Under the pieces are notes generated by a model, which saw nothing but the letters and a program-made list of their open reading frames with translations, did not search any database and had not been told where the DNA came from. A DNA stretch of 64,000 bases, from NCBI GenBank assembly GCA_016202695.1, contig JACQOE010000013.1:707-64706 (forward strand), in the 5' to 3' direction. Numbering within the stretch: position 1 is the stretch's first letter; each line of letters opens with the position of its first letter. The position numbers and the translations under genes are program-made. The DNA comes from Pseudomonadota bacterium. Its GTDB lineage: Bacteria; Pseudomonadota; Alphaproteobacteria; JACQOE01. This document shows positions 8,687 to 58,787 of this stretch, one piece after another.

Positions 8687-11038
8687 GTGAACGATGAGAG
8701 CACCACCTCCCGTGCGGCAGGGCACGTGCGCCTAGGCCAGCCCGTCCGGCGGCTGGAGGACGAGCGGCTGCTCAGGGGGCGGGGCGGCTTCATCGACGAC
8801 CTCGACCTCGGTGGCCAGGCACACGCCCACTTCGTCCGCTCGGTGCACGCGCACGCCCGCATCGCAGGAATCGACACCGCGGCCGCGCGCCAATCCCCCG
8901 GGGTGCTCGCCGTCTACACCGGCGCCGACCTCGATTCGGAAGGCGTGGGCCGCATCCACTTCCCCTCGGCGGTGAAAAGCCGCGACGGCACGCCGATGCG
9001 CAACCCCGTGCGGCCGTGCCTGGTTTCCGACAAGGCCCGGCACGTCGGCGACACGGTCGCCATGGTGGTGGCCGGGAGCCGCGGCGAGGCGCGCGACGCG
9101 GCCGACCTGGTCGCGGTCGAGTACGAGGAGCTACCCGCCGTCACCGGCGCCGCCGAGGCGCTGCAACCGGGCGCGCCGCTGGTCTGGGACGAGGTTCCCG
9201 GCAACCTCGCCTTCGACTGGGAGGGTGGCGACCGGGCCGCGGCGGAGAAGGCGTTCGCCGCCGCCCGCCACGTCGCCCGTGCCGAACTGGTGGTGAGCCG
9301 GGTGGTGGTGGCGGCGATGGAGCCGCGCGGCGCGCTCGGATCGTACGATCCGCACAGCGGCCGCTACACCCTGATCACGCCCACCCAGGGCACCACGCCC
9401 GTGCAGCAGACCATCGCCAGGTACGGCCTCAAGGTGCCCTCGACCGACCTGCGAGTGGAAAGCCCCGACGTGGGCGGCGGCTTCGGGATGAAGAACTACG
9501 CCTATCCCGAGCAGGTGCTGGTGCTGTGGGCGTCGCGCAAGCTGGGCCGGCCGGTGAAGTGGTACCCGGAGCGGAGCGACGGCTTCATGACCGACGCCCA
9601 GGGCCGCGACCACCGGATGCAGGTGGAGCTCGCGCTCGACGCGGAGGGCCGCTTCCTTGCCATCCGCTGCCGGACCCTCTCCAACCTCGGCGCCTACGCC
9701 ACCCAGTCGGCGCCGTTCATTCCCACCCTCGGCGGCACCCGGGTGCTGACCGGGGTCTACACCATTCCCTGCTTCCACGCCGAATCCAGGGGCGTCTTCA
9801 CCAACACCGTGCCGATCGACGCCTATCGCGGCGCCGGCAAGCCCGAGTTCATGTACGCGCTGGAGCGGGTGGTGGACGTGGCCGCGCGCGAGCTGAAGGT
9901 GGACCCGGCCGAGCTCCGCCGGCGCAACATCGTGCTGCCCTCGGCCATGCCCTACCGCACGCCCACGGGGCTGGTGTTCGACTCGGGCGAGTTCGCCAGG
10001 AACATGGACGATGCCCTGGTACTCGCCGACCGCCCGGGCTTCGCCACCCGGCGCGAGGAGGCGAGGAAGCGGGGCAAGCTCCGCGGCCTCGGCTTCTCGG
10101 TCTACCAGGAGCCGGACGGATTCCGCGACAACCGCGCCGAGCTCGTCTTCGACCCCAGCGGGCGGCTCACGCTCACCGTCTCGCCGGTCTCCAACGGCCA
10201 GGGCTACGTCACCACCTTCGCCCAGGTGGTGTCGGACCAACTGGGGCTGCCCTTGGAGACGATCCGGGTCGTGCAGGCGGACTCCGATCATACCGGCGGG
10301 GCCAGCGGTGCCGGGGGCTCGCGCACCGCCACCGTCACCGGCACCGCCATCGCCCGCGCCGCGGCCGAGATCGTGGAGAAGGGCCGGCGCATCGCCGCCC
10401 ACCTGATGGAGGCGAGCGCCGAGGACGTGGAGTTCGCCGACGGCGCCTTCCGCATCGCCGGCACCGACCGCTCGGTGGGCCTGGTCGAGGTGGCGCAGGC
10501 CGCCTTCCTCGTCGCTAGGCTGCCGCCGGACATGGAGTTTGGGCTGGGCGCGACCTCGCACTACAACGCGCGGGCCTACAGCTACCCCTCGGGCTGCCAC
10601 GTGGCCGAGGTGGAGATCGACCCCGAGACCGGCCAGGTGACGCTGATCGCCTACAGCGTGGTCAACGACTTCGGCCGGGTCATCAACCCACTCCTCCTGG
10701 AGGGGCAGATCCAGGGCGGGGTGGTGCAGGGGATCGGCCAGGCGCTGATCGAGAACTGCGTCTACGACCCGGGCTCGGGCCAGCTCCTCACCGGCGCCTT
10801 CACCGACTACGGCATCCCCCGCGCCGACGACGTGCCCTTCATCGCCTGGACGCGGAACGAGGTGCCATGCAAGACCAACCCGCTCGGCATCAAGGGCTGC
10901 GGCGAATCGGGCTGCACCGCCTCGATTGCGGCGGTGATGAACGCGGTGGTGGACGCGCTCGCGGAAGTCGGCGTCACCCAGGTCGACATGCCGACCACGC
11001 CGGAGAAGATCTGGCGGCTGTGCCGGACGGGGAAGTGA
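8687..11038 (+). CDS. Xanthine dehydrogenase-family molybdopterin-binding large subunit (CoxL/CutL-like, not form I CODH)
   Basis: RLEDERLL.G.G.F.DD, MEPRG, VGGGFG.K, active-site loop AYRGAGK, GQG..T, GSR and KGCGESG. Confidence 0.93.
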   Translation: MNDESTTSRAAGHVRLGQPVRRLEDERLLRGRGGFIDDLDLGGQAHAHFVRSVHAHARIAGIDTAAARQSPGVLAVYTGADLDSEGVGRIHFPSAVKSRDGTPMRNPVRPCLVSDKARHVGDTVAMVVAGSRGEARDAADLVAVEYEELPAVTGAAEALQPGAPLVWDEVPGNLAFDWEGGDRAAAEKAFAAARHVARAELVVSRVVVAAMEPRGALGSYDPHSGRYTLITPTQGTTPVQQTIARYGLKVPSTDLRVESPDVGGGFGMKNYAYPEQVLVLWASRKLGRPVKWYPERSDGFMTDAQGRDHRMQVELALDAEGRFLAIRCRTLSNLGAYATQSAPFIPTLGGTRVLTGVYTIPCFHAESRGVFTNTVPIDAYRGAGKPEFMYALERVVDVAARELKVDPAELRRRNIVLPSAMPYRTPTGLVFDSGEFARNMDDALVLADRPGFATRREEARKRGKLRGLGFSVYQEPDGFRDNRAELVFDPSGRLTLTVSPVSNGQGYVTTFAQVVSDQLGLPLETIRVVQADSDHTGGASGAGGSRTATVTGTAIARAAAEIVEKGRRIAAHLMEASAEDVEFADGAFRIAGTDRSVGLVEVAQAAFLVARLPPDMEFGLGATSHYNARAYSYPSGCHVAEVEIDPETGQVTLIAYSVVNDFGRVINPLLLEGQIQGGVVQGIGQALIENCVYDPGSGQLLTGAFTDYGIPRADDVPFIAWTRNEVPCKTNPLGIKGCGESGCTASIAAVMNAVVDALAEVGVTQVDMPTTPEKIWRLCRTGK

Positions 11039-33473: not shown

Positions 33474-35159
33474 ATGCCCGCTTCCCTGACCACCCGCTCC
33501 GGCGGCCGGCTCATCGCCGAGGCGTTGCGCCTGCACGGCGCCGATCACGTCTTCTTCGTGCCCGGCGAGAGCTACCTCGACCTCCTGAACGGCCTCTTCG
33601 ACGTGCAGAACGAGGTCAAGGCGGTGACCTGCCGCTTCGAGGTCGGCGCAGTGGTGATGGCCGAGGCTTACGGCAAGCTCACCGGCCGGCCGGGGGTGGC
33701 GATCGTCACCCGCGGCCCCGGGGCCAGCCACGGCATGGTCGGCATCCACACCGCCTTCCAGGACTCGACCCCGCTCGTGCTCCTCGTCGGCCAGGTGCCG
33801 CGCGACGAGATCGACCGCGAGTCGTTCCAGGAGATGGACTACCGCCGGCTGTTCGCCGCGACCGCCAAGTGGGTGACCCAGATCGACGACGCCCGGCGCA
33901 TCCCCGAGATCATGGCCCACGCCTTCCACCTCGCCGCCTCGGGCCGGCCGGGGCCGGTGGTGGTGGCGATCCCCGAGGACATGCAGCTCGACCGGGTCGA
34001 GGCCGCCGACTGCCGGCCCTACGCCACCGTGCGCGCGCACCCGGGCGCGGCCCAGATCGCGCGGATGCGCGAGCTTCTGGCGCGGGCGCGCCGGCCGATC
34101 CTGCTCCTCGGCGGCTCCGGCTGGAGCGAGGAGGCGCGGCAGCGCATCCGCACCTTCGCCGAGGCGAACCGGCTTCCGACCTGCGTCTCCTTCCGCCGCC
34201 AGGACATCTTCGACGGCACGCTTTCGACCTACATCGGCGACCTCTCGCCCGGCACCGACCCGGCCCTGGTCAAGCGGGTGAAGGAGGCCGACCTCCTGCT
34301 CGCGGTCGGCGCCCGGCTCGGCCAGATGACCACCCAGGGCTACAGCGTCATGGGCATCCCCGACCCCGGCAAGGTGCTCATCCACGTGCACGCGGACGCG
34401 GGCGAGATTGGCCGTGTCTTCCAGCCGACGCTGGGCATCCAGTCGGGCATGCCCGAGTTCGCCGAGGCGGTGGCCGAACTGCCGCCCCTCGACGGCGCCG
34501 CCTGGGCGGAGTGGACGCGCGCCGCGCGCGCCGACCGGGTGCGGAACGCCACGCCACCGGGCTACGACGATCCGCTCGACCTCGGCCAGTGCATGGCGGC
34601 GCTCCAGGCGGCGGCCCCGGCGGACGCGATCTTCGCCTCGGACGCCGGCAACTTCAGCGGCTGGATCTCGCGCTTCCTTACCCTCTCCGGGCGCCAGCGC
34701 CTCCTGGGCCCGACCAACGGCGCCATGGGCTACGGCGTTCCCGCCGCGGTGGGGGCGGCGATCCTGCATCCCGACCGGCAGGTCTTCTCGCTGGTCGGCG
34801 ACGGCGGCATCATGATGACCGGCCTCGAGCTGGCGACCGCGGCCCACTACCGGGTGAAGCCGGTGGTGCTGGTCTTCAACAACGGCATGTACGGCACCAT
34901 CCGCATGCACCAGGAGCGCGAGTACCCGGGGCGGATCATCGGCACCGAGTTCACCAACCCCGATTTTGTCAGGCTGATCGAGGCCTTCGGCGGCCACGGC
35001 GAGGTGGTGCGCGAAACCAAGGAGTTCGCCCCGGCGCTGAGGCGGGCAATGGCCTGCGGCCGGCCGGCGCTCCTCGATCTGCGCATGAACCCCGACCGCA
35101 TCACCACCCGCTCGACCCTCTCCGGAATCCGCGAGAAGGCACTCGCCGGCGGGCGGTAG
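33474..35159 (+). CDS. ThDP-dependent enzyme (acetolactate synthase large-subunit-like)
   Basis: VPGESYL, RFE (cofactor-activating Glu), TRGPG, GAMGYG and GDGG...FNN.MYGTI. Start ATG 33474. Confidence 0.92.
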   Translation: MPASLTTRSGGRLIAEALRLHGADHVFFVPGESYLDLLNGLFDVQNEVKAVTCRFEVGAVVMAEAYGKLTGRPGVAIVTRGPGASHGMVGIHTAFQDSTPLVLLVGQVPRDEIDRESFQEMDYRRLFAATAKWVTQIDDARRIPEIMAHAFHLAASGRPGPVVVAIPEDMQLDRVEAADCRPYATVRAHPGAAQIARMRELLARARRPILLLGGSGWSEEARQRIRTFAEANRLPTCVSFRRQDIFDGTLSTYIGDLSPGTDPALVKRVKEADLLLAVGARLGQMTTQGYSVMGIPDPGKVLIHVHADAGEIGRVFQPTLGIQSGMPEFAEAVAELPPLDGAAWAEWTRAARADRVRNATPPGYDDPLDLGQCMAALQAAAPADAIFASDAGNFSGWISRFLTLSGRQRLLGPTNGAMGYGVPAAVGAAILHPDRQVFSLVGDGGIMMTGLELATAAHYRVKPVVLVFNNGMYGTIRMHQEREYPGRIIGTEFTNPDFVRLIEAFGGHGEVVRETKEFAPALRRAMACGRPALLDLRMNPDRITTRSTLSGIREKALAGGR

Positions 35160-58174: not shown

Positions 58175-58253
58175 CCGGCCCTCGGCCGCGCCCCCGGCGC
58201 GTCCGACGATTAGGGCCGAAGAGACCTCACGGCGCAAGAGGCTCGAACGCGAA

Positions 58254-58283
58254 CGGCGGCGGCGCCGGCAGGCGCCGCCGCCG
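58254..58283 (-). terminator. Terminator-like hairpin after the NPCAAK peptide gene
   Basis: Perfect 13-bp stem cggcggcggcgcc-ggca-ggcgccgccgccg, 50 bp after the stop; the U-tract is weak. Confidence 0.55.
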
Positions 58284-58332
58284 TCTCACGCTGGCCGCAC
58301 GGGCGGCGGCCGCGGGCCGCGCGCTTCTCGGG

Positions 58333-58617
58333 TTACTTCTTCGCCTTCGCCGCGCAGGGGTTCTTGGCGGCGCAGGGATTCGTCGCCGCAGCCGGGGCCT
58401 TGGCCGCGCAGGGGTTCTTGGCGGCGCAGGGATTCGCCGCCGCAGCCGGGGCCTTGGCCGCGCAAGGGTTCTTGGCGGCGCAGGGGTTCTTGGCCTGGGC
58501 CACCTTGATCGGGGTGTCGGAGCCGGCGGCGACCGCCTGCGGCAGCACCGCGCCGGCGGCGATCGCGGCGATCCCGACCGCGACGGCGGCGGTTCGCAAC
58601 GTGGACGTCTTCGACAT
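58333..58617 (-). CDS. Secreted 94-aa Cys/Ala/Lys-rich peptide with six NPCAAK repeats
   Basis: RBS GAGGGA 7 nt before ATG 58617; Sec-type signal (MSKTSTLR-hydrophobic-AVA|A); 54-bp (18-aa) tandem DNA repeat with synonymous variation. Confidence 0.85.
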   Translation of the reverse strand: MSKTSTLRTAAVAVGIAAIAAGAVLPQAVAAGSDTPIKVAQAKNPCAAKNPCAAKAPAAAANPCAAKNPCAAKAPAAATNPCAAKNPCAAKAKK

Positions 58618-58750
58618 GTCAGCATCCCTCATCTGGTCGGACCGCTGCGGGCGACGCGGTCCGCCTCGCGGTTTCGCGTACCGGGCGTTTGCCTTGCGCA
58701 CGCGCCCGGGCCCTATGCCCCATCTTCGACGAGGCTGGCCGCGAGCGCGA

Positions 58751-58787
58751 GTCACAGTGGCGTGAGAGCGGGTCACGAGGGCGTGAG
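58751..58787. promoter_or_regulatory. Tandem palindromic operator candidate GTCACnnnGGCGTGAG x2, 21-bp period
   Basis: gtcacagtggcgtgag (58751-66) and gtcacgagggcgtgag (58772-87), each TCAC-N6-GTGA, in a divergent intergenic region. Confidence 0.55.

Follow-up and report, generated by a model that had tools for sequence, protein, structure and literature searches.

A predicted exported peptide with six NPCAAK repeats is the free-standing form of a widespread poly-thiol arm

The window analysed here, a 64,000-nucleotide stretch (positions 707 to 64,706 of contig JACQOE010000013.1, assembly GCA_016202695.1), comes from a 3.36-Mb, 87%-complete metagenome-assembled genome of an alphaproteobacterium, and harbours on its minus strand (58333..58617, stop codon included) an open reading frame (ORF) of 94 amino acid residues, whose product we call P0001. 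From comparison with homologues of the same architecture we conclude that this gene is real and conserved, and that it encodes a peptide predicted to be exported, flexible and lysine-rich, with six cysteine residues. The original prediction, made from this DNA alone, had described a secreted Cys-repeat peptide; the ORF and its six NPCAAK hexapeptides were confirmed, its translation matched exactly, and P0001 proved to be a genuine member of a conserved family. It represents, in free-standing form, an undescribed module, named here the NPC poly-thiol arm, and stands alone in this window, with none of the conserved partners of the module nearby.

P0001 reads MSKTSTLRTAAVAVGIAAIAAGAVLPQAVA up to the putative cleavage site and, from there on, AGSDTPIKVAQAK-(NPCAAK NPCAAK APAAAA)-(NPCAAK NPCAAK APAAAT)-(NPCAAK NPCAAK)-AKK. 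Residues 1–30 (58528..58617, minus strand) were read from the sequence as a Sec-type signal peptide, with the n-region MSKTSTLR, a hydrophobic core and a cleavage site between AVA and AG; its ending, LPxAVA, recurs in homologues. The pre-array box AGSDTPIKVAQAK (58489..58527, minus strand) carries a subfamily motif, D-T-x-[IV]-[QK]-[ILV]-A, ahead of the first NPC, and is followed by the NPC array (58345..58488, minus strand), predicted to be disordered and composed of three 18-residue units with two NPCAAK hexapeptides each. The array cysteines (residues 46, 52, 64, 70, 82 and 88) show C-x5-C and C-x11-C spacings only, and the putative mature peptide of 64 residues contains six cysteines, ten lysines, one aspartate and no aromatic residue. 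A ribosome-binding site, GAGGGA (58625-58630, minus strand), is located 7 nt 5' of the ATG, and a hairpin with a perfect G+C stem and a 4-nt loop (~58253-58284, minus strand; z = -3.1) is found about 50 nt past the stop codon; both had been noticed before, and the stem was measured by us as 14 bp. The hairpin has no T-run and a consensus terminator scan gave no intrinsic-terminator call; it is probably a transcript end or a stabiliser.

Back-translated NPCAAK has six matches in the window, all within the P0001 ORF, where none is expected, and the pattern was absent from 100 dinucleotide-preserving shuffles. The G+C content at third codon positions (GC3) is 0.93 in the P0001 frame, against 0.94-0.95 in the neighbouring genes, and is identical in the antisense frame, so that the reading frame is settled by the homologues and not by composition. 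The six NPCAAK units differ solely at third positions (AAC/AAT, CCC/CCT and GCC/GCG). This synonymous variation, from which protein-level selection had been deduced, is present as described, but most differences track a 54-nt higher-order duplication, which leaves about five independent events and therefore weak evidence if taken alone. Judged from sequence comparison, the strong evidence for selection on the array is the conservation of N-P-C across phyla.

The homologue searches proposed with the original prediction revealed a conserved family in which N-P-C is kept, and no existing family covers P0001 (no match in Pfam or NCBIfam at E≤0.1). A word-indexed protein search with P0001 returned 218 matches. 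When a profile was run exhaustively with HMMER, 559 cluster representatives passed E≤1e-3, and 115 of them also passed E≤1e-10. A scan for NPCAAKNPC-encoding DNA, which sampled one genome per species, gave at least 120 genomic stretches; a look-up of the exact P0001 sequence matched no further contig. Carriers were found among Alphaproteobacteria (Thalassospira, Sneathiella, Terasakiella, Pelagibius, Hyphomicrobium and Aurantimonas), Betaproteobacteria (Sideroxydans, Gallionella, Azoarcus, Aromatoleum, Accumulibacter and Rhodoferax), Gammaproteobacteria (Marinobacter, Stutzerimonas, Psychromonas, Hahella, Zobellella, Thioploca and Leucothrix) and other groups (Rokubacteria, Methylomirabilia, Nitrospinota, Myxococcota, Tectomicrobia, Gemmatimonadota and Thermoanaerobaculia). 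Secreted Cys-rich peptides, such as bufferins, Csp and SoxY, are emerging as key to the handling of metals and sulfur in the envelope, and the NPC module is equally widespread, comprising hundreds of sequence clusters in at least seven phyla, with Marinobacter, Thalassospira, Stutzerimonas, Azoarcus/Aromatoleum and Psychromonas among its cultured carriers.

The module has no family model, and full-text literature searches on the NPCAAK motif and its variants yielded nothing relevant. Members are named 'hypothetical protein' in public records, with the exception of one fusion that is called 'cytochrome-c peroxidase' and whose array is cut off by the annotated start; public annotation routinely clips NPC arrays. 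The RefSeq model in question, WP_227716659.1, begins at an internal methionine (149 residues), and the open frame of its counterpart in Marinobacter sp. EhC06 (locus L043), which includes a signal peptide and an N-terminal NPC array, has 283 residues. A few other candidates (a second 'NPC' match in genome G014, and loci L005, L023, L054, L091 and L099) contained no real arrays and were treated as chance matches.

We analysed the repeat grammar over 303 arrays, in which proline at position -1 to the cysteine was a search criterion. Position -2 is occupied by asparagine in 93% of cases, and the Cys-Cys spacings are mostly 3 (NPCNPC), 5 (NPCAANPC) or 6 (NPCAAKNPC). Alanine, proline, cysteine, asparagine and lysine account together for 87% of the residues (cysteine 18%, lysine 10%), with aromatic residues at ~0.1% and acidic residues at ~0.8%. 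As a working definition, we considered an NPC poly-thiol arm to consist of at least three N-P-C units, spaced by 3, 5 or 6 residues, on an Ala/Lys-rich and aromatic-free chain behind a signal peptide; P0001 has six such units, with a spacing of 6 inside each pair. Its AlphaFold2 model, built from an alignment of 18 sequences, has a predicted local distance difference test (pLDDT) score of 48.6 and no secondary structure, and therefore the part that functions is apparently the N-P-C unit, borne by a flexible cationic chain, rather than a folded site. The combination of variable Cys-Cys spacing, invariant N-P-C and predicted disorder fits a flexible arm better than a fixed site. We also identified, ahead of the array, a core [IVLM]-[QKE]-[LIVM]-A in 50 of 169 free NPC peptides, P0001 included; in many of the members bearing this box, as in P0001, it extends to the longer subfamily motif, directly after LPxAVA.

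A low-complexity chain of this kind could also be a passive spacer or a cross-linking tether, or the ORF could be spurious in such GC-rich DNA. The composition and the equal GC3 of the antisense frame are in line with this, and arrays do occupy linker positions in other proteins (the junction between signal peptide and domain, or the C-terminus). Nevertheless, we consider it very improbable, given that N-P-C is retained across phyla and base compositions while the spacers vary, that free-standing genes with their own signal peptide, ribosome-binding site and stop codon are common (167 of 243 NPC proteins), and that a specific co-occurrence with DUF6969, described below, is unexpected for a mere spacer.

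ORF scans with a Pfam check, performed over ~132 loci, revealed three main architectures. Free NPC peptides are present at 81 loci; at 33 loci a signal peptide and an NPC array precede a SoxA/TsdA-type cytochrome c domain (PF21342), which is followed by a second array; and at 18 loci a signal peptide and an array precede a cytochrome P460 domain (PF16694). Rarer partners are a small beta domain between arrays, DUF2282 (85.5 bits), DM13 (90 bits), LysM, OmpA and a YHS domain with an NPC tail (30.7 bits, for a cut-off of 30.3). The remark, in the original prediction, that NPC repeats are appended to other periplasmic proteins was thereby borne out for SoxA/TsdA-like cytochromes c, P460-like, DUF2282, YHS, DM13, LysM and OmpA proteins. 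The free NPC gene often adjoins the fused one (L013, L018, L007, L108, L112, L114, L121, L130 and L135).

The NPC-flanked haem core is homologous to SoxA and TsdA, as indicated by profile comparison: the profile of the core matches SoxA of Rhodovulum (1H31_A) with E=2.7e-8 and TsdA with E=0.002-0.003. Its CxxCH motif aligns with SoxA C76-H80, and its single other invariant cysteine, in the motif QFCM, aligns with Cys114, which we take to be the axial cysteine ligand of SoxA haem 1.

To describe the gene neighbourhoods, every ORF lying up to 5 kb from an NPC gene was clustered and cluster representatives were annotated with Pfam, the annotation covering part of the clusters; the counts are lower bounds, being taken mostly from uncentred 8-kb blocks with crude ORF calling. 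The most frequent neighbour is DUF6969 (PF22308), at 40 loci and at a median distance of 114 bp from the NPC gene. It is followed by a DedA/VTT domain fused to a class-I pyridine-nucleotide disulfide reductase (19 loci), a YeeE-like Sulf_transp permease (18), a secreted DUF302 protein with a signal peptide (18), a multihaem cytochrome (16), a secreted 182-residue protein of no family (13), a histidine kinase (13), DUF3179 (9), cytochrome c2 (9), a secreted FGE-family protein (8), an extracytoplasmic function (ECF) sigma factor (8), DsbD_TM/CcdA (8), a thioredoxin/TlpA-like protein (6) and NrsF (5). Free NPC genes occur in two recurring contexts: DUF302 - YeeE-like - 182-residue protein - [FGE] - NPC-haem - free NPC - DUF6969 (context A), and VTT-disulfide reductase - free NPC - (182-residue protein) - histidine kinase (context B).

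The window itself presents none of this, the neighbours of the P0001 gene being a generic MFS transporter, a GST, a Gfo/Idh/MocA oxidoreductase and an EamA protein. The two genes downstream, which had been proposed to be functionally linked to the peptide as an 'Fsr-like' MFS and a 'YfcG-type' disulfide oxidoreductase, were ruled out as conserved partners by their near-absence at ~125 NPC loci, where MFS homologues are found at none and GST homologues at one. Both labels were loose, as the MFS protein has generic matches only and the GST scores 242 bits where the YfcG-type model has a cut-off of 332, and the strong hairpin stands between the P0001 gene and the MFS gene.

DUF6969 is the most constant partner of the module: it is present in 27 of 30 NPC-carrying genomes and in 11 of 61 same-class relatives, including six of the seven NPC-positive ones (Fisher p=5e-5), and in none of 14 control genomes. 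It co-occurs with NPC arrays even where the haem fusion is absent. The protein is cytoplasmic and has no signal peptide (e.g., L079:1356-2060), and its invariant residues (His51, His69, His71, His78, His80, His112, Asp56, Asp59 and Glu203) look like a metal centre in the alignment. Its AlphaFold model is confident (pLDDT 94.2, predicted template modelling score 0.92), and neither sequence searches nor a Foldseek fold search at E≤0.001 gave a match in the PDB; on this model, DUF6969 possibly adopts a new fold that houses a metal centre. Literature searches on DUF6969/PF22308, and on cytochrome P460 with cysteine-rich repeats, returned nothing relevant.

These observations raise the possibility that DUF6969 plays towards NPC arrays the part that MNIO enzymes play towards bufferins and modifies the N-P-C cysteines prior to export through Sec, in which case the mature peptide would not be a simple thiol array. 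Besides its constancy, its proximity to NPC genes and its metal-centre-like residue set in a model with no PDB fold match, the conserved box between signal peptide and array could serve as a recognition element. We regard this modification as unlikely, however, as DUF6969 is unlinked to NPC genes in some genomes (G039 and G056) and to the P0001 gene of the window, there is no conserved transporter, protease or leader-type logic, and arrays fused to large folded domains would be unusual RiPP (ribosomally synthesised and post-translationally modified peptide) substrates.

The other modification route, put forward in the original prediction, is that P0001 is a precursor of the bufferin/HvfA type, modified in trans by an MNIO (DUF692) enzyme. 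Bufferins (BufA1 DUF2282, Buf_6/12Cys and Buf_EGKCG) are MNIO-modified RiPP metallophores (PMC12452194, PMC11626156), and P0001 shares with them a periplasmic location, as predicted from a Sec signal peptide followed by a Cys-bearing core, which is sometimes repetitive in bufferins, as in the Buf_EGKCG precursors (PMC12452194). ECF sigma/NrsF neighbours at some NPC loci and one natural DUF2282-NPC fusion add to the likeness. In three betaproteobacterial genomes (Accumulibacter, Gallionella and Comamonadaceae), an MNIO gene (PF05114) is located 3.6-8.5 kb from the DUF6969 and NPC-cytochrome genes. These sites (G078:C150, G083:C16 and G086:C78) may represent an envelope-stress island shared with bufferin clusters. 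This route nevertheless fails, and we find it hardly tenable, because PF05114 is absent from the 87%-complete host genome and from 20 of the 30 NPC-carrying genomes (it is present in only 10). In addition, MNIO, DUF2063 and DoxX are not among the annotated recurrent neighbour clusters, P0001 has no DUF2282 or EGKCG signature in Pfam or NCBIfam at the threshold given above, and its predicted disorder differs from the beta-helix model for EGKCG repeats (PMC12452194). The 2025 paper on the MNIO landscape makes no mention of the NPC motif, P460 or DUF6969 (PMC12452194); its 'CxxxxC' family, which is MNIO-linked, was considered and set aside, nothing tying that family to NPC arrays.

The host genome contains further parts of the system on other contigs. 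On contig C37 we identified a second NPC protein (10104-10982, plus strand) of 292 residues, comprising a signal peptide, an NPC array and a P460 domain (PF16694, 37.5 bits for a cut-off of 27) with a C-terminal CxxCH, and, divergent from it, a DUF6969 gene (9180-9926, minus strand; 291.6 bits; locus L153). This locus is probably the partner locus of the free peptide of the window. Homologues of the YeeE-like, DUF302, 182-residue (C86 2686-3144) and DUF3179 proteins also lie on other contigs. On contig C59 (13632-17195), the VTT(DedA)-disulfide reductase and histidine kinase genes are adjacent, ~150 bp apart, with no NPC gene between them, whereas a free NPC gene is found between their homologues in L003, L008, L067, L111 and L125; this slot was apparently vacated by the NPC gene, through relocation or loss. 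Since the other parts sit on other contigs and its own neighbours are not recurrent, P0001 can be viewed as an unlinked free member of a dispersed system. The C37 protein resembles the cytochrome P460/c'-beta family (nearest solved structures 7EAD and 8BRK) in its PF16694 domain with C-terminal CxxCH, in contrast to P0001, which has no haem domain; we know of no described P460 protein with an NPC arm. A second cytochrome P460-family gene is present on contig C8 (14162-14569), with a Pfam score of 85.5 bits, above that of the NPC-fused one.

We tentatively favour, at somewhat less than even odds, the hypothesis that P0001 stays reduced in the periplasm and, in a manner comparable to SoxY, serves haem heads by carrying or accepting groups on its several thiols, probably as covalent sulfur adducts. 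The relation of this mobile peptide to the haem heads would be that of the SoxY Cys arm to SoxAX. A small sulfur anion (thiosulfate, sulfide or polysulfide) would be attracted by the lysine-rich arm, joined to the cysteines by the haem domain in an oxidative coupling, and handled by YeeE-like and DUF302 proteins; CcdA/TlpA-type reductants would reset the thiols, and cytochrome c2 would be a plausible electron acceptor. This hypothesis was drawn because the commonest head has SoxA/TsdA homology, because YeeE-like/DUF302 pairs recur, such genes being located within sox clusters (PMC5037610, PMC11034169), and because CcdA/TlpA-type reductants and cytochrome c2 recur nearby, next to an arm that is cationic and flexible.

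The comparison with SoxY and SoxAX extends to several traits: a flexible periplasmic Cys arm, a His/Cys-ligated c-type haem enzyme, to which the NPC haem core is homologous, and, near NPC genes, CcdA/thioredoxin-type reductants and a YeeE-like (SoxT-like) permease. P0001 differs in having neither the Ig-like fold nor the GGCGG end of SoxY, and in having many cysteines where SoxY has one; in addition, fused NPC arms frequently flank the enzyme on either side, and the head in the host is P460-like and not SoxA-like. With respect to the SoxY type, defined by the SoxY fold, a GGCGG arm and SoxZ, P0001 gave no family match, ends in AKK and is predicted to be disordered, SoxZ not having been sought; the arm is fused to or beside SoxA/TsdA-like heads at 33 loci, none of them in the host genome.

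Several observations weigh against the carrier hypothesis. None of the conserved partners is near the P0001 gene in the window, and no SoxA-like NPC head was found in the host genome, the sole NPC head of which is P460-like, whereas P460-family haems are known for N-oxide, not sulfur, chemistry. In some carriers (Thalassospira and Aromatoleum), free NPC peptides and DUF6969 occur in the absence of any NPC-haem fusion, so that a haem head cannot be a strict requirement. The YHS and DUF2282 fusions and the ECF sigma/NrsF neighbours point instead to metal or envelope stress, and the MNIO genes near DUF6969 and NPC-cytochrome genes in the three betaproteobacterial genomes count in the same sense.

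These last observations bear on a metallothionein-like periplasmic buffer, in which Lys-neutralised thiolates would chelate Cu(I), Cd, Hg or Zn and the arms would protect or load the attached domains; each C-x5-C pair could form one digonal site, or several pairs could form one cluster. The array composition given above (cysteine, lysine and aromatic shares) is metallothionein-like, NPC tails occur on the bufferin-type DUF2282 and on YHS, and ECF sigma/NrsF regulators, counted above, are typical of bufferin gene clusters (PMC12452194); one NPC locus has a CzcCBA neighbour, and a TlpA-like reductase lies upstream of one free NPC gene. The MNIO genes near DUF6969 would fit such a buffer as well. 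We nonetheless consider it rather unlikely, given that CopA, multicopper oxidase, CusCBA, CopC/D and Sco/PCuAC are all missing among the annotated recurrent neighbour clusters, that the commonest partners are sulfur-type haem enzymes and YeeE-like/DUF302 proteins, and that variable Cys spacing and predicted disorder speak against a preformed site. Metallothioneins and Csp proteins (SmtA/BmtA, MymT and Csp1) have Cys-x-Cys clusters, a zinc-finger fold or a four-helix bundle. P0001 is, like them, small, Cys- and Lys-rich and aromatic-free, but it is predicted to be Sec-exported, cysteine represents only 9% of its mature form, no metal-homeostasis genes are found among the annotated neighbours, and it shows neither a Cys-x-Cys/CxxC cluster nor any structure in the AlphaFold prediction.

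The carrier, metal-buffer and DUF6969-modification hypotheses are not mutually exclusive. Taken together, N-P-C arrays and DUF6969 could constitute an unrecognised and widespread periplasmic poly-thiol system, based either on SoxYZ-independent loading of cysteines by haem domains or on DUF6969-dependent cysteine modification, a proposal that we hold to be doubtful as it stands. If true, it would represent a disordered multi-Cys carrier loaded with sulfur or other small species, or a new class of secreted peptides. The free 64-residue peptide is the simplest object for working out the chemistry of the arm.

Some neighbours deserve a separate description. The secreted protein of ~180 residues (L135:4194-4742 and 12 further loci) occurs in both contexts and contains the motifs KPGxYxFxVxN and YSCPLNPT; sequence searches in Pfam, NCBIfam and the PDB revealed no relative. 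In a Marinobacter metagenome contig (L154, 12392-15539), a radical SAM gene (323 residues) overlaps the end of the VTT-disulfide reductase gene and adjoins DUF6969 and an ECF sigma/zf-HC2 anti-sigma pair; its best match, sub-threshold, is to the Rv1681 family. When NCBIfam was used to name the neighbours of the LysR, multihaem, YeeE-like, radical SAM and kinase types, all matches were sub-threshold, some of them to selenium-associated models, far under the cut-offs, and these were not used.

Regarding regulation, the EcfG-type motif (GGAAC-N15-18-CGTT) has a single match in the window (34716-34741), far from the P0001 gene, one match being the chance expectation. In the intergenic region between the P0001 gene and the divergent Gfo/Idh/MocA gene, we noticed two tandem imperfect repeats of 21 nt (58740..58781, no strand assigned), each with the pattern GTCAC-N5-GCGTGA, which are a candidate operator and possibly the binding site of a regulator.

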